Of a DNA stretch of 64,000 nt, positions 7,300-21,981 are shown in pieces (within the stretch, counting starts at the first letter, position 1; each line of letters opens with the position of its first letter). The translations under genes and the position numbers were made by a program. The stretch lies in contig DATKNH010000046.1 of the NCBI GenBank assembly GCA_035541455.1, forward strand, positions 8,290 through 72,289, in the 5' to 3' direction. The notes beneath the pieces are model-generated. The model searched no databases. It was not told where the DNA came from and worked only from the letters and a program-made list of their open reading frames with translations. Source of the DNA: Syntrophorhabdales bacterium (GTDB taxonomy: Bacteria > Desulfobacterota > Syntrophorhabdia > Syntrophorhabdales > WCHB1-27).

Positions 7300-9396
7300 T
7301 TACAGCTTGAACAGCAGGTCCGCATAACTGGGTACCGGCCACATATCCTCGGGAACGAGCATTTCTAACGCGTCGATATCTGCGCGCAGGGCCTGTATTG
7401 CTGTGACCACATTATCCCGGTAGCTTTCTGCCTTCTTCACCGTATTCGTAATGCCCTGCGCCTTCGCGACCGCTGCTTCAAGCCTGCCCAACGTCCTGTA
7501 AGAGGACTCCAGCAGCGACCCTATCTTCTCCAGAAGATCCTCCTGTACCGACGCCATGGCCGATGCTGATTTGAAGCTTTCGGCGGAGTCGGCGAGGAAA
7601 GTTGCATATTCGATCACTGCAGGTATGAACTGCTTCTTCACCATGTCGATTGCTGCCAGTGCTTCTATATTGATCTGCTTCGCATAATGGTCAACATAGA
7701 TGTCGTAACGCGAATGGAGTTCTTTGCGCGACAGGACTCCGTACTTATCAAACAGCTTGAGTGCCTTGTCCGTAACGAACGCTTTTAACGCGTCAACGGA
7801 GTTGGCTACGTTGGGAAGATTCCGCTTTTTCGCCTCTGCCATCCATTCTTCCGCATAGTTATTTCCATTGAAGATCACGCGGCTGTGCTTCTTGTAGATC
7901 TCTTTGATGATCGCCGCTGCTTCGGTGTTCTTGTTCTTGGCCTTCTCCAGCCTGGTGGCAATTTCGTCAAAGGCTTCTGCCGCGATGGTGTTCAACGCCA
8001 CATTCGGCCCTGAAATCGACTGTGCCGAGCCGACGGTCCTGAACTCGAACTTGTTACCGGTGAATGCGAACGGCGAGGTCCTGTTGCGGTCGGTGTTGTC
8101 CTTGGGGATCGCGGGAAGAGTGTCCACGCCGACCTTAACGAACTGTCTGCCTCTTGAGGAAATTTTTTGGCCTTTTGAAATCTTATCCAGAATGTCGGTC
8201 AGATCCTCTCCCATGAAAATGGATATAATGGCCGGAGGCGCCTCGTTCGCTCCAAGGCGGTGATCGTTGCCCGCATGCGCACAGGTAGCGCGCAGGATAT
8301 CCGCGTGCGTATCCACTGCCTTGATCAGTGCGCTCACAAACAGCAGAAATTGCACATTTTCTGCGGGCGTATGGCCTGGTTCCAGTAAATTGATGCCGTC
8401 GTCCGTTGAGAGCGACCAGTTGTTATGCTTTCCCGAACCATTGATGCCGGCATACGGTTTTTCGTGTAACAGGCAGACCAGGTCATGACGGAGCGCGACC
8501 TTCTGCATAGTCTCCATAACCAGCTGGTTGTGATCCGTGGCAACGTTGGTGGTGGCAAAAACCGGTGCCATTTCGTACTGCGCCGGTGCAACTTCGTTGT
8601 GCTGGGTCTTGGAAGTGATGCCCATCTTCCACAATTCGGTGTTGAGGTCCCGCATATAATCGGAGATCCTGTCTTTGATGGCGCCGAAGTACTGGTCCTC
8701 CAACTCCTGCCCCTTTGGCGCGGGCGCGCCGAAGATCGTCCGACCAGTGAGCATAAGATCGAGCCGCTCCAGATAAAATTTCTTGTCGACAAGAAAGTAC
8801 TCCTGTTCCGGACCAACAGTAGACGTTACTCTCATGGAAGTGGTGTTGCCGAGAGCCCTGAGCACGCGTAGCGCCTGTTTTGACGCGGCTGCCATGGACC
8901 GCAGCAGTGGTGTTTTTTTGTCGAGCGCTTCGCCGTTGTAAGAGTAAAAGGCGGTGGGGATTGTAAAGGTGACATTGCCGCTTTCGTCGGTCTTGAGGAA
9001 TGCGGGTGACGTGCAATCCCACGCGGTATATCCCCTGGCTTCGAACGTGGCGCGCAAACCGCCGCTGGGAAAAGAGGATGCGTCGGGCTCGCCCTGGATC
9101 AACTGCTTGCCGGAAAACTCCAGAATCACGCCTCCGTCGGCGGTTGGAGATATGAAGGAATCGTGCTTCTCGGCGGTTATCCCGGTGAGCGGCTGGAACC
9201 AATGGGTATAGTGGGTCGCCCCTTTCTCAATCGCCCAATCCTTCATGGCGTTCGCAACCACGTCGGCAACATCGGGGCGCAGCGGCGTGCCCTTTTCAAT
9301 CGTTTCCTTCAGAGCCTTGTAAATCTCCTTGGGCAACCGCTCCTTCATCACCTTATCGTTAAAAACGTTGGAACCAAAGACTTCTGTCAACTCCAT
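7300..9396 (-). CDS. glnN: Glutamine synthetase type III
   Basis: 698 aa. The length and N-terminus ([30 protein letters not shown]...[11 protein letters not shown]) are characteristic of GSIII. The internal [10 protein letters not shown] matches the GS ATP-binding region. Confidence 0.9.
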
Positions 9397-9797: not shown

Positions 9798-12428
9798 TTA
9801 GTCTTCCCATTCTTCAAGCGATGCTTCGGCCATCTTCCCTGTCAGCACGGCCAGCTTCACCGCTCTTATGGTGCGGTACACCTCTGCAGGCTGCCGCTTC
9901 ACACCATCAATCATCAGCAGATCCTCGTCGATCGAGATGCCGAAGAGCTGCTCATTTTCCTGCAGGTAGGGTAAGATAAGCTGCCAGTCTTCCTCCGAGA
10001 AATCACGGAACTCGCCGCCGTTGAGCTGTTCCGGCACGAGTGTGCGATGCGGGTCACGCACGAAAATAGCACCACCGGACGCAAGAGAGAAAAGGTTAGA
10101 ACCCGGATAGGGCGTTGACAGCGCGGTTACATTCCCGTCGTCATCCATGGTCAAACCATTGAGCACCACAAAACCCCCACCGTTGTGCGGGTCACCGGCC
10201 ATGAAAGATTCGGCCAGAAAGTCGAGCACTGTGCCGTTGATCACAACGCGTGGTTTGCCTGCAGCATTGATCAAAGGCCTTCCTGCGGCGTTCCCCAGCA
10301 CATAGACTTCACCGCCTTTGGCGCCGTACATGAAAGTCTGCCCCACGTCGCCGTGCACCACCAGCTTTCCGCTCTTGAGAATCTGGCCGAGCTGGTCCTG
10401 GGCATTACCGTGGACGTGAATCTCAAGGCCGTCTATGCCGGAAGCGAGGTAGTCACCTGTAGCGCCGTAGGCGTCGATGCGCACACCTCGTGTATCCGGG
10501 CCGAGTGAACAACCGAGAAAACGCTGCCCCTTGTGACCGAACGCAATGAAGCGTTTCCAACCCAGTGCATAGGCATCCGTCACCAGACGCGAGTGGCAGT
10601 CGTCCCCCTCCGCGGCAAACGCTTTTACATCAACGACGAGTACTTCTTCACCACGCTTTGGCTTACGGAGCTTCTCTCGAGTGGCGTAATCTATTCTCAC
10701 AAAATTGCTGGTCTTGCGCGCGTCGATAGCTGGAATCGCTCTGAAAATCTCATCAAGGCTTGTCATAATCATCTGGACAATAGACCGGCGCCGCTTGCAG
10801 CCGATTGGATATCGACGGTCAAGAAGATGTGTCAGAACCTCGATGACTGTTGCTCTGAACTTATCAGATGAGGCCATGGACGAAAGGTGTTGGAGCGCCA
10901 CGCGTACCTGCTCATAGTCCCATGCGACAAACTTCTCGCTCAGAAATGCAAAGACCCACTGGGCATTACCTTTCTTCACCAGCTCTTCGATTTCCTGTCG
11001 CACGGCTGCATCAAGCGCGCACGAACTCAGACCGTTACGGAAGTCATAAGGCTCCCGTTCTTTCGGTACATCGATCACACGGCCGAACTTGTCCGTGCAC
11101 GTCAGCGCGTTCCCGTTTCCTTTCGGGTCGACCGTGAAGATAAAGGCTCCGCCGTCTGTGTAGCTACCGCCACGGGCGTTCCAGTACTTGTCCGCGACCG
11201 TGCCGAACCGGGGATCTTCAGCTGCCAGACTGTCGAGCGTTGCGTCGATGGCCTGCTTCTCCGAGCAGATAAGTCCTATCTGGAAATCACCCTTCTGCAG
11301 CGCGAAGACCTGCGGCCTCAGCATCGCCGTATCGGTGATGCCTATCAGCTGAAACTTTTTCTCCTTCGGCAGCGTGCGGGCAATAATGAAGAACCACGGT
11401 CCGTCGGGCGAGCCATGGATCTGGGTTGCCTGAATCTGTCGGTAGATGCGCTGCCTGTCCGGAGGAAGGTGGTCAAAATCCATCTCCGCAGTGGGGGCGA
11501 GTGATTCAATGATGTACTCGAGGGGATAGCCGTAGACGCGGTTGAGCAGGTCGAACACCTGGATGGAAACCTCGGTATCCGTCAGGAAGAGAGGGAATAT
11601 ATTCCGTTGCCGCAGATATTCAGTCACCGAATAGTAGTTGGCAAAGTCGCCGTTGTGCACGAGTGCCTCATCCAAACCGATAAAAGGGTGTGCCCCGCCC
11701 GGATGCCAGACGCGCCCCTTGGTCGGATAGCGCTGGTGCGCGATCCAGATGTGGGCTTTGAAGCCCTCGAGCTTGTAGTACTGCGCCACCTGCTCGGCAT
11801 ATCCAACGATCTTCAGGATCATCATGTTGCGGCCGTGCGAAAGCACAAAGGCCCGCTTCTCGCCCAGTGAACTGTAGTAGGTGTAGTTGAGCTGAAAGCT
11901 GTTCTGGTAGATGAACTCTTCTTCTGTCTTTTCCGCTGAGAGCGCAAGGAGGCCGCGCTCCTTCTGGAATCGTTCGAGCGCTTCGGGCTTAACCCTGACG
12001 AAGTAGCGCTTCACCGCTGGCGGCTTCATCTCCAGACCAGGGACATCGCGGTAGTCGTCAACCGTATCGAGGAAACCCTCGTGGTCGACACGGAACTGAG
12101 GCCGGATGAACCTTGCTTCCATCTCGGGAAGAGCCGTCTCATCCAGAAGCGATATCTGAATGCAGAAATCCTCGTCCAGCACTTTCTGGCTCACGCCCAG
12201 TTGGGTAGGATCGAGCCCTGCCGCGGCTATGCCGCCGCCCTTTCCATTCCCGCGATTGTGCATCTGGACGGATGGTTCAAAGATGTGGCGACCGCTAACC
12301 GGGATGCTGCACGCAAAACCGGTAACACCGCAACCACCCTCCTCAGCCTCCTTCTGGCCAACCGGAGGCGCGTACGCCCTCAGGTGAGCGCGCGCACTAA
12401 GTATCGCCTTGATCTCCGACTCTTTCAT
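9798..12428 (-). CDS. Glutamate synthase subunit: class II (Ntn) glutamine amidotransferase domain fused to a GXGXG (GltB C-terminal) domain
   Basis: 876 aa. The N-terminal region carries EEGGCGVTGFA...HNRGNGKGGGIA (Ntn-amidotransferase type). The C-terminal region carries GHKGQRFLG...DAYGATGDYLASG...IHVHGNAQDQLG...VVHGDVGQTFMYGAKGGEVYVLGNAAGRPLINA, which is the GXGXG beta-helix motif series. Confidence 0.8.
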   Translation of the reverse strand: MKESEIKAILSARAHLRAYAPPVGQKEAEEGGCGVTGFACSIPVSGRHIFEPSVQMHNRGNGKGGGIAAAGLDPTQLGVSQKVLDEDFCIQISLLDETALPEMEARFIRPQFRVDHEGFLDTVDDYRDVPGLEMKPPAVKRYFVRVKPEALERFQKERGLLALSAEKTEEEFIYQNSFQLNYTYYSSLGEKRAFVLSHGRNMMILKIVGYAEQVAQYYKLEGFKAHIWIAHQRYPTKGRVWHPGGAHPFIGLDEALVHNGDFANYYSVTEYLRQRNIFPLFLTDTEVSIQVFDLLNRVYGYPLEYIIESLAPTAEMDFDHLPPDRQRIYRQIQATQIHGSPDGPWFFIIARTLPKEKKFQLIGITDTAMLRPQVFALQKGDFQIGLICSEKQAIDATLDSLAAEDPRFGTVADKYWNARGGSYTDGGAFIFTVDPKGNGNALTCTDKFGRVIDVPKEREPYDFRNGLSSCALDAAVRQEIEELVKKGNAQWVFAFLSEKFVAWDYEQVRVALQHLSSMASSDKFRATVIEVLTHLLDRRYPIGCKRRRSIVQMIMTSLDEIFRAIPAIDARKTSNFVRIDYATREKLRKPKRGEEVLVVDVKAFAAEGDDCHSRLVTDAYALGWKRFIAFGHKGQRFLGCSLGPDTRGVRIDAYGATGDYLASGIDGLEIHVHGNAQDQLGQILKSGKLVVHGDVGQTFMYGAKGGEVYVLGNAAGRPLINAAGKPRVVINGTVLDFLAESFMAGDPHNGGGFVVLNGLTMDDDGNVTALSTPYPGSNLFSLASGGAIFVRDPHRTLVPEQLNGGEFRDFSEEDWQLILPYLQENEQLFGISIDEDLLMIDGVKRQPAEVYRTIRAVKLAVLTGKMAEASLEEWED

Positions 12429-12461
12429 GACCTCTTCCTTCTAGCCTTTATCCTTTTTCCT

Positions 12462-12520
12462 TTCGCCTCGTAACCCGTAACACTCTTGCACGTAGCCTGC
12501 AACCCGTAACCCGCAACGTG
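12462..12520 (-). repeat. Heptamer-repeat spacer (GTTRCGG units) between GOGAT genes
   Basis: The minus strand reads GTTGCGG GTTACGG GTTGCAG ...GTGTTACGG GTTACGA GGCGAAA. It also contains ACGAGGCGAA, which recurs at 577-586 (+). The 9-mer ACGAGGCGA is at 9688-9696 (+). Confidence 0.5.
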
Positions 12521-12526
12521 TATTTA

Positions 12527-14074
12527 TCAGTCTAACTCTCCCCTCACTTCTTCCTTCTTCATATAATCGATATGGACCAGAGCATCCATGCGGCCCGTGA
12601 GTTCCGTGATGCTCTTCATACCCAATCGCGCGAGTATCTTCCTGAACTGCTCACACCAGGCGAGGTACATATTGATGATCCTCTGTGTACCCCACTCCAC
12701 ATCCATCAAACCAGTCAGCTCTTCATCGGTTGTTGCAATGCCCCTTGCGCAGCCGCGTCCTGACTCACAGTGGTGGCAACGCAGGCACTCCAGCGCCACC
12801 ATATCTGCTGTGCCCAGGCAGACCCCGTCTGCTCCCAGCGCTATAATCTTTGCAGCGTCATACGCATTGCGAACACCGCCGGATGCGATAACGGTTATGC
12901 CGTCACGGATGCCTTCCGCCGCAAGGAACTTATGTACCTTCGGCACCGCATATTCGATAGGCATGGCGATGTTTTTCTTGGCGATATCGGGCGCCGCACC
13001 TGTTCCACCGTAACTTCCGTCCAGATGAATGATGTGCGCCCCCGCATAAAAGCTGCCGACAGCCACCATATCCACATCGGTCGGCGTAGAGACCTTGACC
13101 GAAACAAGGGTTCTCGGATTTATTGCCTTGATCCAGTCAACATGCTTCTTGTGATCCTCGACAGAGTAAACACTGTGGAAGGGGAAGGGTGAAAAAAGCG
13201 CGCTTCCGGTGACTGCTTCGCGCATCCTGGCGACAGCCGGCGTCACCTTGTCGCCGAGCAGGTGGCCGCCAAGGCCAGGTTTTGCGCCCTGCGCATACTT
13301 GAACTCGACAATGCGAACGCGCTGAATGGTCTCCTCCCTTACACCGAAAAGCCCTGTAGCCACTTGCGTAATGACGTGGTCGTCGTAAGGCTTGAGATCA
13401 TCGGGATAGCCCCCTTCGCCTGTGCAGCAGAAGGTGTCCAGTGCGGTCGCAGCACGGACCCGCGAGAGCATCGTTACAATGCTTACCGAGCCGAAGGACA
13501 TGCCGCCTAAGTAGAAAGGCACGGGAATAGTAACTCTTGGCCGCGCGTCATTCGAGCGATTCAGGTCGATGGCCAGAGAGATGTCTTTGTCCTTGATGGC
13601 CTTCGCCTTCGTACCGTTACCGTTAACGGGATAGAGCAGCCGCAATTTATCAAAACCTCCGCCCGAATCACCCGTCTTGTAGTTGATATCCTGGTGCGGC
13701 GTAAGGCCGGTCTCCGCCATATGCCACGTGCTGGCAAGCAGGTCAGCCGTCCAGCGCTTGTCGCCGAGCAGCTCAAATGAAGGATTACGCCGTATGCTAA
13801 TGGCAGCCACTGGGCAGCGGCTCACGCAGTAAAATGAATTCTTCTCACACCCGGGTCCGAGGCAGAGATGCTCTTTCGGGGTTCTCGGCTTTTTGGAGCC
13901 CTTAGAATAAACGCCATAGGGACATATTTCGATGCAGAGGCCGCAGTTGTTGCAGGAAGTGTCGATGGAAAGGAGATACTTGCCCAGGGCATAGCGAAAA
14001 CGTGACGGCGCTGGCTTTGCCTTCGGCAGCGTCGCGCTTTTCTTTCGTGGCTTGGTTGTTTTTGTTGCCTTCAT
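12527..14074 (-). CDS. Glutamate synthase FMN-binding (GltB domain 2) subunit with an N-terminal 2x[4Fe-4S] ferredoxin domain
   Basis: 515 aa. Cys clusters CNNCGLCIEICP and CVSRCP are present. The core QGAKPGLGGHLLGDKVTPAVARMR...FSPFPFHSVYSVEDHKKHVDWIKAINP...VSVKV and GGVRNAYDAAKIIALGADGV match the GltB FMN domain. Confidence 0.85.
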   Translation of the reverse strand: MKATKTTKPRKKSATLPKAKPAPSRFRYALGKYLLSIDTSCNNCGLCIEICPYGVYSKGSKKPRTPKEHLCLGPGCEKNSFYCVSRCPVAAISIRRNPSFELLGDKRWTADLLASTWHMAETGLTPHQDINYKTGDSGGGFDKLRLLYPVNGNGTKAKAIKDKDISLAIDLNRSNDARPRVTIPVPFYLGGMSFGSVSIVTMLSRVRAATALDTFCCTGEGGYPDDLKPYDDHVITQVATGLFGVREETIQRVRIVEFKYAQGAKPGLGGHLLGDKVTPAVARMREAVTGSALFSPFPFHSVYSVEDHKKHVDWIKAINPRTLVSVKVSTPTDVDMVAVGSFYAGAHIIHLDGSYGGTGAAPDIAKKNIAMPIEYAVPKVHKFLAAEGIRDGITVIASGGVRNAYDAAKIIALGADGVCLGTADMVALECLRCHHCESGRGCARGIATTDEELTGLMDVEWGTQRIINMYLAWCEQFRKILARLGMKSITELTGRMDALVHIDYMKKEEVRGELD

Positions 14075-14077
14075 GAC

Positions 14078-15472
14078 CTACTGTCCTCTGCTTCCCAGGC
14101 TTGCGAATTCGCGTTCCAGATCCTCGAAGAACATGGCGCGCCCCATTTCACCGCGAAGTCTTCTCACTTCACGCAACCCCATGGCGCCCATGACCTCAAG
14201 CAACTGGTTGTGCCAGCCCGCCATAAGGTTTTTCACACGGCGGCTACCCCAGCCCGGATCTACTTCCCCGAGTTCCACCGGGCACGCAACCCCCTGTGCG
14301 CAACGACGACAAACGCGGCACTCCATGGCCACCAGGAGCGGTATATCGCAGCTGACCGCATCCGCTCCGCAGATGATGACTTTTGCCATGTGCTCCGCCA
14401 TCGCGATGCCGCCTCCTGCAATGATCGTAATTTGATCTCTCAAACCCTTATCGACCAGGAATAGATGCGCCTCCTTCAAACGGTCCTTGATGAAGAGAGG
14501 CTCATCTGCTTCTTCCATGCCGAATTCATCGGCGACAATATGGATTATCTCCGCACCCTCGCGGGTCAGTTCTGCTATGCGAGCACCCGCGGTCGGCGTA
14601 AGCGGCATGCGAATGGCGACGAGGAGGTCCGGCTTCTGCTCCTTCAGTATCCGTTGCCATTCAAGAATGGCAGGGCTGTCCGGTATTTCTACGATCCGCA
14701 CCCGCTCAAGCAAATGACCGTCCAGGCGACGGCTGCCTGCGTCGGGGCCGCGGTCCAAGAGCAGGATTGTATTCGGGAGAAAGCCCTCGTAGATCGGGAG
14801 CCACTCAGATTCCTTTATCACGACAAATGTCCCCAACTCGGTTGCTGCCCGCAACAAAGCTCTTAATATGCGTTTCCTCGGGGGCGAAAAGGGAAGCAGG
14901 TCAAATATGAAAGGAACCGGTATTTCGACAAGGGGAGGGATCGGGTGAGCAGGCTGGCCCTGGTCATCGAACTGCAAGGCCATCATCTTTCTGCCGAGGT
15001 CGACCGTGGTGCTGATATATTCCCTGCCGTGGATTCCGTCGCGAGTCGGTCTCACAATCTCCGACATATCAGTCCACATGGCGTCAAAACCGGGTCCGGC
15101 GAAGAGTCCGCCGTATCCCGCGCCAGACACAGGAATTTTGCCTGTTTCAGCCTGCGCCCAGAGATTCCCAAGAATCTCTGGCGTCCAGTAATGGTCGCCG
15201 ATTGTGCGATAGGTCGGATTCACGCCCTTCTGGATCAGCCTGGCAGGGCAGTTCTGCACGCAGCGAAAGCAATCCTGGCAGGCGCTGTCCAGGGAATCGA
15301 GCATCTGGCGCTCGTCCAGCGAGCGCGTTCCGTACACATTGTAGACGCATTCCTTTTTCACACAGCGGGCGCACTTAAGGCATCCCTCTTCCCAGGCTAT
15401 CACGCCGGATCGCGTTACAGCCCTGAACCTGTTAGGCACAGACGCGGTGTGTATCTGATATTTCGGCGGCAT
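14078..15472 (-). CDS. Glutamate synthase-related Fe-S protein (degenerate paralog of the FMN subunit)
   Basis: 464 aa. Cys motifs CLKCARCVKKEC, CQDCFRCVQNCP and C-terminal CRVCRRCAQGVACP are present. The C-terminal ITIIAGGGIAMAEHMAKVIICGADAV parallels ITVIASGGVRNAYDAAKIIALGADGV of the neighbouring subunit, but the QGAKPG..GG substrate/FMN block is not seen. Confidence 0.65.
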   Translation of the reverse strand: MPPKYQIHTASVPNRFRAVTRSGVIAWEEGCLKCARCVKKECVYNVYGTRSLDERQMLDSLDSACQDCFRCVQNCPARLIQKGVNPTYRTIGDHYWTPEILGNLWAQAETGKIPVSGAGYGGLFAGPGFDAMWTDMSEIVRPTRDGIHGREYISTTVDLGRKMMALQFDDQGQPAHPIPPLVEIPVPFIFDLLPFSPPRKRILRALLRAATELGTFVVIKESEWLPIYEGFLPNTILLLDRGPDAGSRRLDGHLLERVRIVEIPDSPAILEWQRILKEQKPDLLVAIRMPLTPTAGARIAELTREGAEIIHIVADEFGMEEADEPLFIKDRLKEAHLFLVDKGLRDQITIIAGGGIAMAEHMAKVIICGADAVSCDIPLLVAMECRVCRRCAQGVACPVELGEVDPGWGSRRVKNLMAGWHNQLLEVMGAMGLREVRRLRGEMGRAMFFEDLEREFASLGSRGQ

Positions 15473-15488
15473 CGCGTGCTCCTTGCAT

Positions 15489-16412
15489 TCATAAAACAGG
15501 ACGCGGCAGGAGTTTCGCTCCTTCCACGATTTCTGCTACGGCCTCTTCCCATTCGATAGCCATGATGTGAACACCGTGAATCCCTTTGATCTCCCGCAGC
15601 TCAGCAATAGTTTCTACGCAGATTTTGAGACCCTCTTTTTTCTGATCTTTTGAGGGGACACCCTTGAGCCGGTCAATGATCTCCGCAGGAATATCTATAC
15701 CGGCCACGTTGTTTGCCATGTATTCCGCCATCCTTACGGACTTGAGCGGTGTTACACCGCCAAGAATATAGACCTTCGAGTCGACACCGAGATCCCTTAC
15801 CTGCTGCATCCACTCCTTGAAGTAAGGCAGGTTGTAGATGCACTGCGTCTGGATGAACTCGGCGCCCGCGCTAACTTTCTTCCCGAGCCGGCGTGCGCGG
15901 TATGAACGGGGGTCCGCAAAAGGATTCTCCACAGCCCCGATAAAGAGTTCCGGAGGCAGCGTCAGTTTGTCTCCGCCGAGGATGGTGCCCTCGTCCCTCA
16001 TCTGGCGCACAAGGTGAATGAACTGGGTTGAGTCAATGTCAAAGACGCCTTTTGCCTCCGGCTGGTTGCCGAAAGACTGGTGATCGCCTGAGAGACAGAG
16101 AATGTTTCTGATGCCCAGTGCTGACGCGCCGAGCACGTCTGATTGCAGGGCGATCCGGTTCCTGTCACGCGTCACCATCTGGAGCACCGGGTCGAGTCCC
16201 TCCTCTCTGAGGATAGCGCATGAAGCAAGACTCGATAAACGCACCACACCTGTCTGGTTATCCGTTACATTGACGCTGTCCACACAGTTTTTGAGCAGGT
16301 TTCCCTTTTTGCGCACCGCTTCGGGATCCGCCCCCTTGGGTGGCCCGCACTCGGCAGTGACGGCGAACTGGCCTGCAGCCAGTATTTTTCTAAGTCGGCT
16401 CTCCGGTTTCAA
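15489..16412 (-). CDS. metF: Methylenetetrahydrofolate reductase catalytic subunit (acetogen/anaerobe-type MetF)
   Basis: Carries FAVTAECGPPKGADP...VNVTDNQTGVVRLSS...VTRDRNRIALQSDVLGA..GIRNILCLSGDH. The preferred start is TTG at 16412, with GGAGGA 9 nt upstream and a TTGA overlap with the metV stop. The ATG at 16469 would overlap metV by 61 nt. Confidence 0.85.
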   Translation of the reverse strand: MKPESRLRKILAAGQFAVTAECGPPKGADPEAVRKKGNLLKNCVDSVNVTDNQTGVVRLSSLASCAILREEGLDPVLQMVTRDRNRIALQSDVLGASALGIRNILCLSGDHQSFGNQPEAKGVFDIDSTQFIHLVRQMRDEGTILGGDKLTLPPELFIGAVENPFADPRSYRARRLGKKVSAGAEFIQTQCIYNLPYFKEWMQQVRDLGVDSKVYILGGVTPLKSVRMAEYMANNVAGIDIPAEIIDRLKGVPSKDQKKEGLKICVETIAELREIKGIHGVHIMAIEWEEAVAEIVEGAKLLPRPVL

Positions 16413-17077
16413 TTTCTCTGATCCTCCCGCACGATTTTCCTCGGGCCCTTGCCCTCTTTCTTCGACCAATTGGCAGGTGGTTGCACAGAGCCCAGTTTAT
16501 CGAGACGATTGCTCTCTTCCAACCGCGTCACTATCAAGTGCCATGCGCACGGCGTCTCGGGATCAACCTCACAGTATCCTCCCTTTGAGCCGCCGCAAGG
16601 ACCATTGAACAGGCTCTTCGCGCAGCGCGTTATCGGACAGACATCTGCGAACCTGTCCAGCTTGCAATCGCCACAGGCCCGGCAGTTCTCAACCCACAGG
16701 CCCGCCTCCCGTGTCTGGCCGATGAAGGTCGTGTTGAGCGCCGGAACGATGTGGATCTTCGGAAAAATCTCGGCGATTGCCTGCACACCGGCGCCGCAGC
16801 CCAGGGAAAGAATCGCGTCACACTGATCGATCAATGCGGTGAGCTGGTCGATGAATTCATAGACACACTGACGATCGAGCGTAATTTCGCGTATCTCCAC
16901 ACGCCGCCCCTCTTTCTTCGCGTCCATGCGCAGCGCTGATGCAAGAAGAGCAACTTCCTTCTCTCCTCCCGAGGCGCATTCGGCAACACACGTACCACAG
17001 CCAACGATCAATAATTTCTTGTAAGGGGAGATGCTTTCCTTAATTTCCGGAAGAGGCTTTCTTTCTGCAGTAATCAT
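16409..17077 (-). CDS. metV: Methylenetetrahydrofolate reductase-associated Fe-S/zinc-ribbon subunit (MetV)
   Basis: 222 aa. The N-terminal LLIVGCGTCVAECASGG and C-terminal CRACGDCKLDRFADVCPITRCAKSLFNGPCGGSKGGYCEV are typical of the MTHFR C-terminal-domain protein encoded next to metF. Confidence 0.8.
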   Translation of the reverse strand: MITAERKPLPEIKESISPYKKLLIVGCGTCVAECASGGEKEVALLASALRMDAKKEGRRVEIREITLDRQCVYEFIDQLTALIDQCDAILSLGCGAGVQAIAEIFPKIHIVPALNTTFIGQTREAGLWVENCRACGDCKLDRFADVCPITRCAKSLFNGPCGGSKGGYCEVDPETPCAWHLIVTRLEESNRLDKLGSVQPPANWSKKEGKGPRKIVREDQRN

Positions 17078-17119
17078 ATACGACTCCTATGCTGCGCAAC
17101 TACATACTCACATGTCGTG

Positions 17120-17560
17120 TCACGGAGTGTTGCGCGCTGCTTCTTTCGTCTCTCTGGCATTGAGCGGTGATTGAGTCAGCCCCTTTTCCCTGCTGATCAG
17201 CATGCGGGCTATGTCATCAATGGTGTTCGGAAAAGGTGAGGAGGCATGGATCAGTTCAAAACGCTCAGGCTCGAGACCGATCTCTTCTATGAGCTTGCGG
17301 GCAAATTCCACTCTCTTTTTTGCCCTCGTATTGCCTTCCTTATAGCGGCAGGCTCCTACAGGGCACGTAACAAGATAGACTTTATCTGCTCCGGCCTCAA
17401 GGGCGCGCATCAGATGAAGTGACTCTATCCTACCTGAACAGGGAAGGGTAAAGAATTTTATCCGCGAGCCAAGCTCCTTTTCAAGAGCCCGCCGGTTCAC
17501 GTCCTGCTCAGGATCAAGCCGCTGACAGAAAAAAATGGCGAAGTTGAATTCCTTTTCCAT
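17120..17560 (-). CDS. mvhD: MvhD/FlpD-like [2Fe-2S] hydrogenase iron-sulfur subunit
   Basis: 146 aa. IFFCQRL...FTLPCSGRIESLHLMRALEAGADKVYLVTCPVGACRYKEGN matches the methyl-viologen-reducing hydrogenase delta-subunit family. Confidence 0.8.
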   Translation of the reverse strand: MEKEFNFAIFFCQRLDPEQDVNRRALEKELGSRIKFFTLPCSGRIESLHLMRALEAGADKVYLVTCPVGACRYKEGNTRAKKRVEFARKLIEEIGLEPERFELIHASSPFPNTIDDIARMLISREKGLTQSPLNARETKEAARNTP

Positions 17561-17579
17561 AGGTATCCTAACGCACGGG

Positions 17580-17606
17580 AAAAAAGGGGCGCCCGATGGA
17601 CGCCCC
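17580..17606 (-). terminator. Intrinsic terminator-like hairpin 19 nt upstream of the mvhD start codon
   Basis: The minus strand reads GGGGCGUCC-auc-GGGCGCCCC (9 bp stem including one G.U) followed by UUUUUU. It lies downstream of the amidotransferase stop (17677) and immediately before the mvhD RBS. Confidence 0.6.
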
Positions 17607-17641
17607 TGTCGTTTGCGTGCACGCCTTCGTGCCGAAGCGTT

Positions 17642-17671
17642 ATCTTAACAAACCCGCAAATCCTTTGTCAA
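17642..17671 (-). promoter_or_regulatory. Sigma70-like promoter candidate (TTGACA-N18-TAAGAT) upstream of the mvhD leader terminator
   Basis: On the minus strand, TTGACA is at 17671-17666 and TAAGAT at 17647-17642. The same hexamers occur at the nuoA promoter candidate. The 18 nt spacing is slightly long. Confidence 0.35.
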
Positions 17672-17676
17672 GCTCC

Positions 17677-18489
17677 TTATACTAAGGAACTCAGGGCTTC
17701 TCCCGGGACAAGAACTTTCCCTTTCTCGTCCCACCAGAGAGTCCGAAAACTTTCAGGCTTCCTGTCGAGAAAGAGCTGTGTCACCCGTTTTAGCCGGGTC
17801 GCTGATTCGGCCAGACGCCTGAAATTGCCGAAGATGGTCGCTGCCTGTTCGTCGAGGGCTCGCTTAACGATGGCGCCCTGGCGGAGAATATTGTGCACAT
17901 CAACATCTTTCTCGCCCTTCATCCAATCTTCAATCATGTCCAGAGAAACTTCGATGTGGAACTGCAAACCGTAGGCGCAACTCCCCATCCTGAAAGCCTG
18001 ATTCCGGACAATCACAGATGTTCCAAGCAGCACGCCACTATCGGGAATATCAAACGTATCTTCATGCCACTGAAAAACGGTCAGGGGGCTCTCTACCTGT
18101 TTGAAGAGCCTGTCCTGCCTCGCTTCTTTTGTTAATGTGACCGTGTACCATCCCAATTCCTTCTGGGCCGCTTTCATCACGCGGGCGCCGCAGGCTTTGG
18201 CCAGGAGTTGGGCACCGAGGCAGATACCCAGAAAGGGTATCTCAGCCCTGAGTACCTCCTTTATCAGCACATCTTCCTTTTTAAGAAAGGGGTAAGCCTC
18301 TTCTTCATATACGTTCATCGGCCCCCCGAGTGCAATGACTGCCGCGAAGCCATCCAGACGCTCCGGCAGCGATTCTCCACGGCCAAGCTCTACAGGCACG
18401 AGCCTCCAGCCTGCCTCTTCAAATGACTTTCCAAGCAGGCCGGGACCTTCCTGTTCCACATGCTTCACGATCAAGACAGACTTGTCCAT
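17677..18489 (-). CDS. Class I glutamine amidotransferase (GuaA-like/GATase1) with a C-terminal extension
   Basis: Carries VLIVKH...GPGLLG...AVIALGGPMNVYEE..YPFL...PFLGICLGAQLLA...LQFHIE, giving the Cys-His catalytic context. The ATG at 18489 has a GGAG RBS; the listed TTG at 18501 is less likely. Confidence 0.75.
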   Translation of the reverse strand: MDKSVLIVKHVEQEGPGLLGKSFEEAGWRLVPVELGRGESLPERLDGFAAVIALGGPMNVYEEEAYPFLKKEDVLIKEVLRAEIPFLGICLGAQLLAKACGARVMKAAQKELGWYTVTLTKEARQDRLFKQVESPLTVFQWHEDTFDIPDSGVLLGTSVIVRNQAFRMGSCAYGLQFHIEVSLDMIEDWMKGEKDVDVHNILRQGAIVKRALDEQAATIFGNFRRLAESATRLKRVTQLFLDRKPESFRTLWWDEKGKVLVPGEALSSLV

Positions 18490-18578
18490 GTTTGACTCCA
18501 ATAAAGAACACGCGCCTCCCGGGCAGAACGCACTACCTCGTCGGCGTTAGCAGCCGGGAGCTGATCTCCTGCGTAACC

Positions 18579-20072
18579 CTACATGTCAAAGTACAGATGG
18601 AATTCGTAGGGATGCGGCCGCAAGCGGATCGGGTCTATCTCGTTCTCCCTCTTATATTCGACCCACACATCGATCACATCCTGTGTAAAGACGTTGCCCC
18701 TGAGCAGGAACTCATGATCCTTCTCCAGTGCACCGATTGCGGCTTCCAGGGAGCCGGGCACTGTTGGAATCTTTGCAAATTCTTCCGGATCCATGTGATA
18801 GGTGTCTACGTCAGTCGGTTTTCCAGGATCTATTTTGTTTATTATACCGTCAACACAGGCCATCATGATGGCAGGGAACGCGAGATAAGGGTTGCAGGTG
18901 CAGTCCGGCGGCCTGAATTCAAGCCGTTTAGCCTTCGGGTTGTCCGAATACATCGGAATTCTGACAGCGGCCGAGCGATTACGTGCCGAGTAGACCAGGT
19001 TGACCGGCGCTTCGTATCCCGGCACGAGTCTCTTGTATGAGTTTGTAGTCGGAGCACAGAAGGCAAGCAGGGCGGACGCGTGTTTCAGAAGGCCCCCAAT
19101 CGCATATTTGCCCAGTTTGCTGATGCCCGCATATCCAGCTGCGTCGTAGAAGATATTGGTACCTTTATTCCAGAGTGAGATGTGGGTGTGCATACCTGAG
19201 CCGTTGTCACCAAAGAGAGGCTTGGGCATGAAAGTCGCCACCATATTATTCTTTTTAGACACGTTCTTCACGATATACTTGTACATGAGACACTGATCTG
19301 CCATTTTAACCAGAGGACCGAATTTCATGTCGATCTCACACTGCCCGGCAGTTGCAACTTCGTGGTGATGCACTTCGACCTTTATCCCCGCCTTGATCAT
19401 AGTCAGGATAATTTTGCTCCTCAGGTCCTGGAGCGAGTCATGCGGCGGCACAGGGAAGTAACCCTCTTTGTAGCGAGGCTTATACCCGAGGTTCGGCTTT
19501 TCGTCGCGGCCCGAATTCCATTCGCCTTCGATGGAATCGATGAAGTAGTAGCCCGCATTCTCCGTCTGATCGAAGCGGATATCGTCAAAGATGAAAAACT
19601 CCTGCTCCGGACCGAAGAAACTCTGATCGGCAAAACCAGTTGTCTTCAGGAACTCTTCTGCTTTTTTTGCAACGTAGCGCGGGTCGCGGGTGTAGGGCTT
19701 CTTGGTAATCGGATCGTAAATGTCACACAAGACACTGAGCGTGGGCACCTCACAGACCGGATCGACCACAGCGGTAGTCGGGTCGGGCAGCAGGATCATG
19801 TCTGACTCGTTGATTTTCTGAAAACCCCTGATCGAGGACCCGTCAAAGCCGATCCCCTCTTCCCAGATGGACTGTACGGGATCATCGATCTCGGTCAATT
19901 CGGATGCTGGAATAGAAAAATGTTGCCACAGCCCGGGCAGATCATTGAACTTCAAGTCAACGATCTCGATCTTATTATCCTTTATCAGCTTCCCCACATT
20001 CTGTAGATCTTTTCCGGTTATGCCGCCATTCCAACGTATTGTCTTGTTCTTTTTTTCCGGGTTTTTGTCCAT
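18579..20072 (-). CDS. glnA: Glutamine synthetase type I
   Basis: 497 aa. Carries [43 protein letters not shown] and [13 protein letters not shown], with AAVRIP in the C-terminal part. Confidence 0.9.
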
Positions 20073-20185
20073 GGCTCCTCCTTAAAGTGTATGATCACAC
20101 TGTAACGACCCTACGTATTTGTGTGAAGTCGCGCCTCTCCTCTTGTGGGGGCGGACAAGCGCGTGTTTCTACACTAGTCCTGTCT

Positions 20186-20199
20186 GAACGTCGCTGTTC
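20186..20199 (-). promoter_or_regulatory. glnA leader hairpin with hexaloop AGCGAC
   Basis: The minus strand reads GAAC-AGCGAC-GUUC. The 11-mer GAACAGCGACG is shared exactly with the amtB leader (22020-22030). Confidence 0.35.
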
Positions 20200-20242
20200 G
20201 GAACGATAATAAGGAGTCCCTCGGAGTCGGTGAGGGGAAGCT

Positions 20243-20258
20243 GGTACGCCAATGTACC
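20243..20258 (-). promoter_or_regulatory. glnA leader hairpin with hexaloop AUUGGC
   Basis: The minus strand reads GGUAC-AUUGGC-GUACC (5 bp stem, hexaloop with A at position 1 and G at position 4). Confidence 0.35.
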
Positions 20259-20399
20259 GAAATACAAACTATACTTACACAGAACATTCCTAAATTTCAA
20301 GTGATAAGAGTAAACATCGGGCCTAGCTCTCCGGGCATCTAGGGCTTTTCGTTCTAGTGCCCGCGGGCGAATGACCCGATGTCGCGATAGGCGCACTTC

Positions 20400-20741
20400 C
20401 TATCCTATGGCTGTGCCTCCCTTCTCTCCTGTCCTGATGCGGATACACTCTTCGAGCGGCAGTACGAAAACCTTACCGTCGCCGATCTCACCCGTTCTGC
20501 CTCCGTTCAGGATAGCATTGATGGTGGACTCCACAAAATTATCATTTACTGCGATGAGGAGTTGCACCTTGCGCAACAGATTGCCCATCTCTTTAACGCC
20601 CCGGTACACTTCGGTGATACCCATCTGGCGTCCGTGGCCAAGCACCTCGCTGACCGTGATGAGATTTACCTCTGCTTTGTAGAGTTCCTGCTTCACGGCC
20701 TCCAGCCTATCCGGTTTTATGATAGCAATAATCAGTTTCAT
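20400..20741 (-). CDS. glnK: Nitrogen regulatory protein P-II (GlnK-type, encoded downstream of amtB)
   Basis: 113 aa from MKLIIAIIKPDRLEAVKQEL. The T-loop region is GHGRQMGITEVYRG and the C-terminus is GDGKVFVLPLEECIRIRTGEKG. The longer ORF start at 20780 would overlap amtB. Confidence 0.9.
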   Translation of the reverse strand: MKLIIAIIKPDRLEAVKQELYKAEVNLITVSEVLGHGRQMGITEVYRGVKEMGNLLRKVQLLIAVNDNFVESTINAILNGGRTGEIGDGKVFVLPLEECIRIRTGEKGGTAIG

Positions 20742-20751
20742 ACCCTTCCCC

Positions 20752-21981
20752 CTATTCAAGTATAGTGTAAGCGTGTTCATGGTGCTGTGTCAGGTCGAGT
20801 CCCATTATCTCGTCCTTCTCTTGTACCCTCATGCCCATGATCCAGTCAACAACCTTGTAAATAATCATGGTGCCAACAAAACTGTAGGCCAGCGTAATTG
20901 CCACTGCAAGCAACTGTATAAGGAACTGCTTAGGATTGCCGAAAAAGAGACCGTCAGCACCATCCGGGTTGATAAGCTTGCTCGCAAAAAGCCCTGTTGC
21001 CAGCGCTCCCCAGATGCCGCCGACACAGTGCACACCGAACGCGTCCAGAGAATCGTCGTATCCGAGCTTCGGCTTAACCACTGCTACGGCTATGAAGCAG
21101 ATCACACTCACAAAGATGCCGATGATGATCGCCGACATCGGCCCCACAAAGCCGGCGGCGGGCGTAATGGCAACAAGCCCTCCGACCGCGCCGGTTGCGG
21201 TACCGAAGATGGTCGGTTTTCCGTTCGTGATCCACTCAATGACCGCCCACGTCAACCCGGCAGTTGCGGCGGCCGTATTAGTCACGACGAAGGCATTTAC
21301 TGCCAGACCGTTCGCCGCCAGTGCGCTGCCCGCATTGAAGCCGAACCAGCCAAACCACAAAAGCGCTGTGCCGAGAACCGTATGGGGCAGATTGTGCGGA
21401 GGAACCGGGGCTTTGTCGTACCCCTTTCTCTTGCCTATAAAGAGCGCGGTTCCCAAGGCGGCGATGCCCGCATTGATGTGCACGACCGTACCGCCTGCAA
21501 AATCAAGCGCGCCAAGCTCCTTGAGCCAGCCGCCAACACCCCAGACCCAATGGGCAACAGGATCATAGATGAAGGTCGCCCAGAGCAAGGTGAAGAGGAG
21601 GAATGCCGAAAACTTCATTCTCTCCGCAAACGCCCCGATGATGAGGGCTGGCGTGATGACAGCGAACATTGCCTGAAAGATCATGAAGGCCGTGTGTGGT
21701 ATGGTGGGAGCGTAGTCCTTGAACGCATCTGCACCGACTCCCGCAAGCCCCACCCATTGGAGGCCTCCCCAAAACCCTTTACCCGGTGCGAACGAAAGAC
21801 TGTAGCCGAAGAGCACCCACTGGAGACTGAGGACACAGAGAATCGTAAAACATTGCATCAGTACACCCAGCACATTCTTTCGGCGTACCATGCCTCCGTA
21901 AAAAAAGGCCAGTCCCGGGGTCATGAGCATTACCAGGCCTGTAGAGATGAGAACCCATGCCGTATCACCTGCATTAATCAT
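20752..21981 (-). CDS. amtB: Ammonium transporter
   Basis: 409 aa. Carries AWVLISTGLVMLMTPGLAFFYGGMVR, DFAGGTVVHINAGIAAL, LLWFGWFGFNAGSA and DDSLDAFGVHCVGGIWG. Confidence 0.92.
   Translation of the reverse strand: MINAGDTAWVLISTGLVMLMTPGLAFFYGGMVRRKNVLGVLMQCFTILCVLSLQWVLFGYSLSFAPGKGFWGGLQWVGLAGVGADAFKDYAPTIPHTAFMIFQAMFAVITPALIIGAFAERMKFSAFLLFTLLWATFIYDPVAHWVWGVGGWLKELGALDFAGGTVVHINAGIAALGTALFIGKRKGYDKAPVPPHNLPHTVLGTALLWFGWFGFNAGSALAANGLAVNAFVVTNTAAATAGLTWAVIEWITNGKPTIFGTATGAVGGLVAITPAAGFVGPMSAIIIGIFVSVICFIAVAVVKPKLGYDDSLDAFGVHCVGGIWGALATGLFASKLINPDGADGLFFGNPKQFLIQLLAVAITLAYSFVGTMIIYKVVDWIMGMRVQEKDEIMGLDLTQHHEHAYTILE

Follow-up and report, generated by a model that had tools for sequence, protein, structure and literature searches.

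The whole 64,000-nt stretch analysed here, called the window (Syntrophorhabdales bacterium, GenBank contig DATKNH010000046.1, positions 8,290 to 72,289), was found to carry six adjacent genes on its minus strand that combine a methylenetetrahydrofolate reductase (MTHFR) of the MetVF type with a split glutamate synthase (GOGAT) of the archaeal type. Pfam and NCBIfam scans of the open reading frames (ORFs) identified, in gene order, mvhD (17560-17120), predicted to encode a 146 aa [2Fe-2S] electron-relay protein of the MvhD/FlpD family (Pfam FlpD, E = 2e-23), metV (17077-16409), for the 222 aa Fe-S/zinc subunit of a MetVF-type MTHFR (DUF5981, E = 4e-35), and metF (16412-15489), for the 307 aa flavin TIM-barrel subunit of the same enzyme (MTHFR, E = 2e-40). 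These are followed by three genes referred to here by the length of their products. A protein match at 100% identity traced the window to a Syntrophorhabdales metagenome-assembled genome. G464 (15472-14078) includes a 2x[4Fe-4S] ferredoxin domain and the C-terminal third only of a Glu_synthase domain, G515 (14074-12527) a ferredoxin domain, a full Glu_synthase flavin mononucleotide (FMN) domain (E = 2e-86) and an Fe-S loop, and G876 (12428-9798) a GATase_6 class-II amidotransferase and a GXGXG domain.

As read from the sequence, the successive junctions are a gap of 42 nt, a TTGA overlap, and gaps of 16, 3 and 98 nt. The overlap between the metV stop and the metF start presumes that TTG at 16412 is the metF start codon, and the orthologues begin at the same site. 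Each of the six genes is preceded by a Shine-Dalgarno-like sequence. No terminator-like hairpin was seen at any internal junction, and promoter or terminator matches within genes were weak and not above the shuffled expectation; the sole strong terminator-like hairpin (17607-17585) is upstream of mvhD. An earlier interpretation of this DNA, made without database searches (the sequence-only reading), had described the same six genes, domains and junction sizes and had likewise seen no hairpin between them, and all of this was confirmed. The 98-nt spacer between G515 and G876 contains GTTACGGGTT-like direct repeats (GTTGCGGGTTACGGGTTGCAGG...GTTACGGGTTACG; 12450-12510, minus strand), which were assigned no role, as the spacer is not kept in relatives, some of which have other short repeats.

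Motif conservation was computed over 60-80 orthologues per protein. In MvhD, Cys 12, 41, 66 and 71 are kept at levels of at least 95% or at least 70% (61 orthologues), and the Cys-rich motifs of MetV are conserved (73 orthologues). In MetF, the Glu of TAEcGPPKG, the Asp of LCLsGDH and the Gln of FiQTQ are kept at 95% or above (72 orthologues), and alignment to the T. thermophilus MTHFR structure 1v93 matched them with the catalytic residues of solved MTHFRs. The Glu of E. coli MetF was reportedly found by Trimmer et al. in 2001 to be required for the folate half-reaction and not for the NADH half-reaction. With the MTHFR fold, the catalytic residues and an adjacent metV that is predicted to be translationally coupled via the TTGA overlap, the pair has the expected core of a MetVF-type MTHFR.

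G515 aligns to residues 853-1170 of A. brasilense GltB (E = 1e-49) with the QGAKPG..GG and GGTGA blocks intact, and KYAQGAKPGLGGHL, GSYGGTGAAP and CxRCHxCESGRGC are conserved in 74 orthologues, i.e. the substrate, FMN and Fe-S loop motifs are retained. G876 consists of a class-II (N-terminal nucleophile, Ntn) amidotransferase, a central region of ~300 aa with no assigned domain, and the GXGXG domain; EEGGCGVTGF, HQRYPTKG, HNGDFANY and the GXGXG repeats are conserved (62 orthologues), and the predicted nucleophile, the Cys in EEGGCGVTGF, comes after a putative propeptide of ~32 aa. A stand-alone FMN domain in G515, and an amidotransferase and GXGXG domain carried by G876, place the two among the archaeal-type split glutamate synthases.

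G464 is a paralogue of G515 (26% identity, BLASTP) from which the QGAKPG..GG and GGTGA blocks are missing, the first of these losses having already been recognized by the sequence-only reading. It shares 62-88% identity with more than 100 protein clusters (formed at 90% identity), and all Cys residues of its ferredoxin domain and of a C-terminal CxxCxxCx5C cluster loop are retained across the family. Residues 117-155 make up an invariant block of ~40 residues (GAGYGGxFxGPGFDAMWTDMSEIVRPTRDGIHGREYIST; GFDAMWTDMSEIVRPTRDGIHGREYIST), which has a counterpart neither in G515 nor in GltB and is a candidate for an interface or for a site of binding. Judged by its sequence, G464 is a strongly conserved pseudo-GltB whose substrate blocks are gone and not a decaying gene; the strong conservation, the invariant block and the kept Fe-S cysteines fit the role of a connector or partner. 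In the AlphaFold2 model of G464 (predicted template modelling score 0.72), confidence is confined to the TIM barrel, with the ferredoxin domain and the block 115-152 below 50 in the predicted local distance difference test, and the closest folds to the model are the GltB FMN domain (7mfm, 1ofd) and FMN-dependent alpha-hydroxyacid oxidases. A search of the PDB by sequence matched G464 weakly with GltB and with nothing else, and PDB sequence searches gave no solved MetV and no structure of a complex of the kind proposed below.

Distribution of the gene set and its MetVF lineages

Two peptide patterns specific to G464 were run against a set of genomes in which each species is represented once, and 233 G464 relatives were confirmed. 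The 80 loci retained, all of them from metagenome-assembled genomes, were classed by tblastn with the proteins of the window. Most are labelled as Thermodesulfobacteriota (Syntrophorhabdales, Syntrophaceae, Desulfobacteraceae, Desulfarculaceae and others) or Nitrospirota (Thermodesulfovibrionia, Dissulfurispiraceae), and one Spirochaetes and one Leptospirales locus are also included. The canonical order mvhD-metV-metF-G464-G515-G876 was present in 58 of the 80 loci. A further six, belonging to a lineage of Desulfobacteraceae, have a complete set in the rearranged order mvhD-G464-G515-G876-metV-metF, and 15 are interrupted by a contig end and fit one or the other of the two orders. The only true exception, L031 (7628-15616), carries mvhD-G464-G515-G876 without metVF, which may have been truly deleted or else lost through misassembly. 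Hence 79 of the 80 species-level loci are compatible with all six genes together, which is the outcome of the synteny survey that the sequence-only reading had proposed. The flanks vary between loci, and three large genomes with unrelated flanks share the same gene run. In the rearranged order MvhD adjoins G464 and is distant from MetV, and in L031 MvhD is still encoded beside the GOGAT genes.

The MetF proteins of the two orders belong to different clades. MetF of the rearranged type is 44% identical to that of the window and 68-71% identical to MetF linked to Hdr and the Wood-Ljungdahl pathway (L084, in the cluster CdhC-CdhD-AcsE-HdrC-HdrB-HdrL-MvhD-MetV-MetF, and L085b; L085 carries HdrA-MvhD-MetV-MetF), while MetF of the window shares 59-63% identity with Hdr-linked MetF of Syntrophorhabdaceae, i.e. 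with the other clade. As the MetVF of the rearranged clusters is from a different MetF clade, MetVF has been recruited or replaced at least twice, and the joining of two MetVF lineages to the same GOGAT-like genes argues that a genuine MetVF module is needed by the system. Thus, the concern that the synteny might be restricted to this genome falls away, given two gene orders and MetVF from two clades, and on the comparative evidence the MetFV-GOGAT linkage is real. A single MvhD lineage across both orders was considered and then dropped after sequences had been added, in view of the identities of the rearranged-type MvhD (33-43% to the main type and 35-45% to Hdr-linked MvhD).

Two of the loci collected for comparison had features of their own. 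In L084, the Hdr-linked MvhD-like gene, which gave no Pfam match, has an in-frame TGA (9030-9032) at a conserved cluster Cys (..VAG*EEGECHF..), and this codon probably codes for selenocysteine. L085 (332-6610) shows a third setting of MetVF, in which the genes of a small Fe-S protein, of MetV and of MetF precede those of a multihaem cytochrome c (612 aa), a 4Fe-4S protein and a membrane protein similar to NrfD. Its MetF shares 59-63% identity with the other members of clade A that were compared (61% with MetF of the window), and the gene group may represent a membrane- or quinone-linked MTHFR.

Four types of MTHFR have been distinguished, namely MetF alone, MetVF, MetVF with RnfC2, and MetVF with HdrABC-MvhD (PMC8760232). 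A search was made with the HdrL-like protein seen downstream of some clusters, and paralogy was examined in three genomes (L086, L087 and L088). The search recovered HdrL from replicons whose GOGAT-type cluster has no hdr neighbour. In L086 (8049-16538), a complete type-IV MTHFR cluster is found ~115 kb from the GOGAT-type cluster (L001/L034) on a 5.51 Mb chromosome, and in L087 (8222-16515) another is ~1.1 Mb from the GOGAT-type cluster (L003) on a 2.47 Mb contig. The order in these clusters is hdrC-hdrB-small ORFs-hdrL-mvhD-metV-metF, and HdrL is a protein of ~1468 aa with a GltD-like domain.

Among the 62 loci with enough flank, hdrC-hdrB-hdrA/L directly follow G876 in seven, which are spread over at least four places of the G464 tree, and no hdr gene was found within 10 kb in the remaining 55 (~89%). 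L088 (1-16648) is the one hdr-adjacent locus read past hdrL. Here 15 nt separate G876 from hdrC, and the hdr set is followed by its own mvhD-metV-metF, such that the two systems stand in tandem; the hdr set of L025 comes with a separate mvhD, and no metVF is present within that locus. The seven loci were first read as evidence of an Hdr partner, which was then reduced to a rival explanation because L088 shows a complete type-IV cluster at that place, which makes the adjacency ambiguous. As type-IV clusters with their own mvhD-metVF occur in the same genomes, mvhD-metVF of the window is regarded as a second, dedicated copy. The sequence-only reading had noted that MvhD is encoded with no hdrA in the window. 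Indeed, the annotated ORFs of the 64 kb include neither hdrA nor hdrC or hdrB, but the statement does not extend to the organisms, since two related replicons encode hdr genes elsewhere. It had also considered the case of hdrABC encoded elsewhere and co-purifying with MetFV; hdr genes do exist elsewhere, but they come with a MetVF of their own.

The leader of the operon and its surroundings

A sigma-70-like promoter precedes mvhD (17671-17642, minus strand), consisting of TTGACA, a spacer of 18 nt and TAAGAT (score 10/12, with a TG extension), and TTGACA-N17/18-TAnnnT is kept at the same place in relatives. Downstream of it, a leader of the ANTAR type (17633-17580, minus strand) ends 20 nt before the mvhD ATG. 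It is made up of hairpin P1 (17633-17619; GGCAC-GAAGGC-GTGC), hairpin P2 (17610-17599; GAC-AGGGGC-GTC) and an intrinsic terminator (17607-17585) of 10 pairs, eight of them G-C, with its T-run at 17585-17580; the 5' arm of the terminator overlaps P2. This attenuator was overlooked by the sequence-only reading and is present in at least 26 loci.

The leader was assigned by motif, using the published definition of ANTAR substrates as dual hexaloops with A1 and G4 in which P2 competes with a terminator (PMC3369931). In 25 aligned leaders, G4 is invariant in both hexaloops and position 1 is mostly A, with G in some; the P1 loop of the window begins with G, not A. The P1 and P2 stems are nearly invariant among relatives. 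The strict dual-hexaloop pattern matched the window once, where 0.01 matches were expected, and 27 times in the 1.54 Mb made up of the loci and the window, 26 of these matches being directly upstream of mvhD. The one other match (L059, 960-1025) is located ~450 nt upstream of amtB, with a terminator behind it, a hint that nitrogen genes may form a small regulon under ANTAR control. Rfam gave no family for the whole window at gathering thresholds, nor for the mvhD leader at E values up to 10. On motif grounds the leader is an ANTAR-type attenuator. In Desulfotomaculum, ANTAR substrates have been reported before genes for glutamate synthase (PMC3369931), and the same principle is used for nitrogen-fixation genes by GnfK/GnfR of Geobacter (PMC2995071). 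Since the leader is before mvhD and no attenuator was found before G464, mvhD, metV and metF would come under the same control as the genes of the GOGAT. The Nitrospirota-labelled loci have a different leader before the cluster, also with a terminator. L031 retains the ANTAR leader; the gene upstream of it encodes a protein of 531 aa that matches Glu_synthase weakly, and glnD is downstream.

The genes around the operon, named from Pfam and NCBIfam matches, are mostly those of nitrogen assimilation. Upstream, outside the operon and likewise on the minus strand, are two amtB genes (23506-22277 and 21981-20752), glnK/PII (20741-20400) and type I glnA (20072-18579), with a PRK07053-like class-I glutamine amidotransferase gene (18501-17677, 274 aa) between glnA and the leader. 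As the promoter and the terminator leader stand between, this last gene belongs to the glnA unit. The upstream set recurs in many related loci, and the class-I amidotransferase gene (17677-18501 in the window, minus strand) is found at the same place in many of them. Downstream, 400 nt after G876, is a gene for type III glutamine synthetase (9396-7300, minus strand; GSIII_N, E = 1.5e-80). The operon therefore sits within a nitrogen-assimilation locus. The rest of the window includes an operon for complex I and genes of the pentose-phosphate pathway and of transport, among others, and neither a single GltB of ~1500 aa nor a GltD small subunit, as in NADPH-GOGAT, was found in the window.

Electron input to the glutamate synthase

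The comparative evidence makes it likely that the six genes are a functionally coupled unit. They would encode one nitrogen-regulated, multi-subunit Fe-S flavoenzyme with an archaeal-type glutamine:2-oxoglutarate amidotransferase as its core, in which G876 would hydrolyse glutamine and channel the ammonia and the FMN of G515 would reduce 2-iminoglutarate. The gene set includes no GltD-type NAD(P)H subunit, and a MetVF-type paralogue set stands on the electron-input side. There are two substrate-level flavin sites in the conserved core, those of MetF and G515, while MetV, MvhD, G464 and the ferredoxin domain of G515 are all Fe-S. Because the glutaminase and synthase sites are intact and the attenuator is in an amtB-glnK-glnA locus, glutamate is taken as the product, with electrons passing into G515, and because, apart from G515, MetF alone provides the core with a substrate-level redox site, 5-methyltetrahydrofolate (methyl-THF) would be the likeliest reductant.

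Electrons would then travel from the MetF flavin to the [4Fe-4S] clusters of MetV, the [2Fe-2S] cluster of MvhD, the Fe-S clusters of G464, the ferredoxin and C-terminal clusters of G515 and last to the G515 FMN, with the MTHFR operating in the oxidative direction (CH3-THF + 2-oxoglutarate + Gln -> CH2-THF + 2 Glu). The potential of CH2-/CH3-THF is approximately -200 mV, and that of 2-oxoglutarate + NH4+/Glu approximately -120 to -150 mV, becoming more positive with glutamine hydrolysis; as the former is below the latter, the proposed direction would be downhill. The core FMN of a GOGAT takes electrons singly, and in GltBD these are supplied by GltD. For their part, MetVF-type MTHFRs, which have an FMN and two [4Fe-4S] clusters as cofactors, need a partner, the purified enzymes do not use NAD(P)H, and an NADH site is predicted in neither MetF nor MetV (PMC8760232). 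The full model, comprising the wire from MetF to GOGAT, its direction and methyl-THF as the reductant, is offered as a tentative but serious proposal.

Other glutamate synthases beside the cluster bear on this point. In L024, a second split GOGAT (15691-20834) comes directly after G876 and consists of a 369-aa protein without a Pfam match, a 553-aa protein with ferredoxin and Glu_synthase domains, and a 777-aa fusion of GXGXG, GltD-like and ferredoxin domains. It has neither MvhD nor G464; both are thus additions, the simplest role of which would be to join two flavin sites. A similar second GltB-like match occurs in the Nitrospirota-labelled L021, L063, L065 and L011 (annotation was made for L024 only), and the Spirochaetes-labelled L066 encodes a classical GltB of 1511 aa (15845-20380). 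The coexistence of GltD-type or classical GOGATs suggests a different reductant for the MetVF-linked enzyme.

Several points weigh against the wire from MetF to GOGAT. The evidence for complex formation is comparative, and to our knowledge every known MvhD works with HdrA. HdrL is encoded in these genomes, beside the cluster in ~11% of loci, which leaves room for an Hdr partner, and ferredoxin could feed G464 and G515 directly, with MetF then a second sink and not the source. The model also presupposes a supply of methyl-THF, from carbon monoxide dehydrogenase/acetyl-CoA synthase (CODH/ACS) or from methyltransferases, in all carriers. In addition, L031 lacks metVF, and the leader is a sign of attenuation control and not of which signal is sensed. 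Three options had been left by the sequence-only reading, i.e. a shared low-potential electron-input module, G464 as a new MetFV partner, and co-regulation of C1 and N assimilation only. The linkage proved real and a partner or connector role of G464 fits, while co-regulation alone is unlikely; both a shared input module and a direct wire are compatible with the sequence.

Given the habits of MvhD, an Hdr-dependent enzyme has to be considered, in which the MvhD of the cluster docks MetVF-G464-G515-G876 onto an HdrA/HdrL-HdrBC core whose genes are located elsewhere or, in some genomes, beside the cluster. HdrL would take up NAD(P)H through its GltD-like domain, and electrons may then be bifurcated at the flavin of HdrA, one branch leading to the high-potential acceptors (2-oxoglutarate + Gln, methylene-THF) and the other to ferredoxin. 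MvhD is the known adaptor of HdrA, and type-IV MTHFR is itself HdrABC-MvhD-MetVF (PMC8760232). The hdrC-hdrB-hdrL or hdrA genes found directly after G876 in seven of the 62 loci, at no fewer than four places in the tree and at a distance of just 15 nt in L088, point the same way, as do the GltD-like NAD(P)H module of HdrL and the occurrence of HdrL even where the cluster has no hdr neighbour. However, the hdrCB-hdrL sets of L086, L087 and L088 own an mvhD-metV-metF and are complete type-IV enzymes, so that two neighbouring MTHFR systems could account for the adjacency, and hdr genes do not occur within 10 kb in ~89% of loci. An Hdr core also leaves unexplained why the GOGAT head needs a MetVF of its own, recruited twice, and we consider this explanation improbable.

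We judge similarly unlikely a two-headed, ferredoxin-dependent reductase, which is the form that the shared low-potential input would take. Reduced ferredoxin would dock on the polyferredoxin-like domains of G464 and G515, and electrons would go separately to the GOGAT FMN and, via MvhD and MetV, to MetF, which would reduce methylene-THF. The N-terminal 2x[4Fe-4S] domains of both G464 and G515 and the lack of a dedicated NAD(P)H subunit in the archaeal-type core are in keeping with this, and type II MetVF enzymes take reduced ferredoxin in vitro (PMC8760232). Yet the fact that MetVF alone accepts ferredoxin in vitro makes G464 and MvhD superfluous for that purpose, the cells already have a type-IV MTHFR, and there is no evident reason for an MTHFR to share the attenuator of a GOGAT and to be recruited twice.

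A third explanation, in our view rather remote, is that MetF has left folate and become a dehydrogenase for NAD(P)H or another cofactor, i.e. a replacement of GltD. As a duplicate gene metF is free to diverge, its product stands in for GltD in the gene set, and type I MetF oxidises NAD(P)H at the folate site (PMC8760232). Such a shift is at odds with the folate-specific general-acid Glu, and with the Asp and Gln, being kept at 95% or more, with the same role being filled in rearranged clusters by a second-clade MetVF near Wood-Ljungdahl-linked enzymes, and with the failure of every MetVF-type enzyme yet tested to use NAD(P)H (PMC8760232). Co-regulation only, in which MvhD-MetVF and G464-G515-G876 would be separate enzymes sharing an operon for a joint C1 and N need, is the least credible, as linkage in 79 of 80 loci, in two orders and with two MetVF clades, makes it unlikely, and although pathway-mixing operons are common, the gene set outlasts rearrangement and MetVF replacement, MvhD is beside G464 in the rearranged order and is kept with the GOGAT genes in L031, a separate housekeeping type-IV MTHFR exists, and G464 and MvhD would be left without a role.

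The wire from MetF to GOGAT can be carried further, by a speculation to which we give little weight, if the folate one-carbon unit were a redox shuttle between the two paralogous MTHFR systems, which are in tandem in some genomes (L088). With NAD(P)H as donor, HdrCB-HdrL-MvhD-MetVF would reduce methylene-THF and, through bifurcation, also ferredoxin, and the GOGAT-linked MetVF would re-oxidise the methyl-THF and so drive glutamate synthesis, with the net reaction 2 NAD(P)H + 2-oxoglutarate + Gln + oxidised ferredoxin -> 2 Glu + reduced ferredoxin. If true, this would be an energy-conserving, electron-bifurcating glutamate synthase and would give a physiological role to the long-sought 'second acceptor' logic of type-IV MTHFR.

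The gene set addresses two questions, the redox partner of MetVF-type MTHFR and the reductant of archaeal-type split glutamate synthases, in a conserved and twice-assembled form carried by many uncultured Thermodesulfobacteriota and Nitrospirota, among them syntrophs and sulfate reducers. Should methyl-THF be the reductant, the enzyme would have a new activity, these energy-limited anaerobes would meet the cost of nitrogen assimilation in one-carbon units and not in NAD(P)H or ferredoxin, and metabolic models of the carrier organisms would change.

Comparison with known systems

The closest relative on the MTHFR side is the type IV enzyme, HdrABC-MvhD-MetVF of Moorella thermoacetica (PMC8760232), which shares the triplet mvhD-metV-metF in the same order, a MetF without a predicted NAD(P)H site, and an MvhD with one cluster that adapts the enzyme to a larger redox partner. 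Complete enzymes of this type are encoded in the same genomes as the GOGAT-type cluster (L086, L087 and L088). The cluster described here differs in that three glutamate-synthase-like genes replace hdrCBA, the bifurcating flavoprotein HdrA is encoded neither in the operon nor in the 64-kb window, and the setting is a nitrogen locus with an ANTAR leader. In the type III enzyme, RnfC2-MetVF of Acetobacterium woodii, MetVF is likewise plugged into an accessory electron subunit (PMC8760232). That accessory, however, is an NADH-binding RnfC-like protein, whereas no nucleotide-binding subunit is encoded here.

On the side of the glutamate synthase, the archaeal-type split enzymes have the FMN domain, the amidotransferase and the GXGXG domain as separate proteins, e.g. 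those of the Methanocaldococcus MJ1351-1349 type. G515, with its ferredoxin and GltB FMN domains, an amidotransferase and GXGXG domain encoded apart, and the lack of GltD agree with this arrangement. In contrast, the amidotransferase and GXGXG domains are here fused in G876 around the central region of ~300 aa, and the degenerate GltB paralogue G464, MvhD and MetVF have been added and conserved. NADPH-GltBD, ferredoxin-GOGAT and the F420-dependent FGltS, an FrhB-linked glutamate synthase (mentioned in PMC9012536), are precedents for exchangeable electron-input modules on a GOGAT core, but an input module of MetVF and MvhD was not found described in the literature. Literature searches likewise turned up no description of a MetVF-GOGAT linkage of any kind, in agreement with what the sequence-only reading had supposed.

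The leader resembles those of the ANTAR-controlled nitrogen genes of Geobacter (GnfK/GnfR) and Desulfotomaculum in its dual hexaloop, the invariant G4, the overlap of P2 with the terminator and its place upstream of nitrogen-assimilation genes in anaerobes, and differs in that the operon behind it starts with mvhD-metVF. Thus, all the parts belong to known families, and their combination, as far as gene content and conservation can tell, is a new architecture for MTHFR, which would be its fifth type, and a new electron-input module for glutamate synthase.

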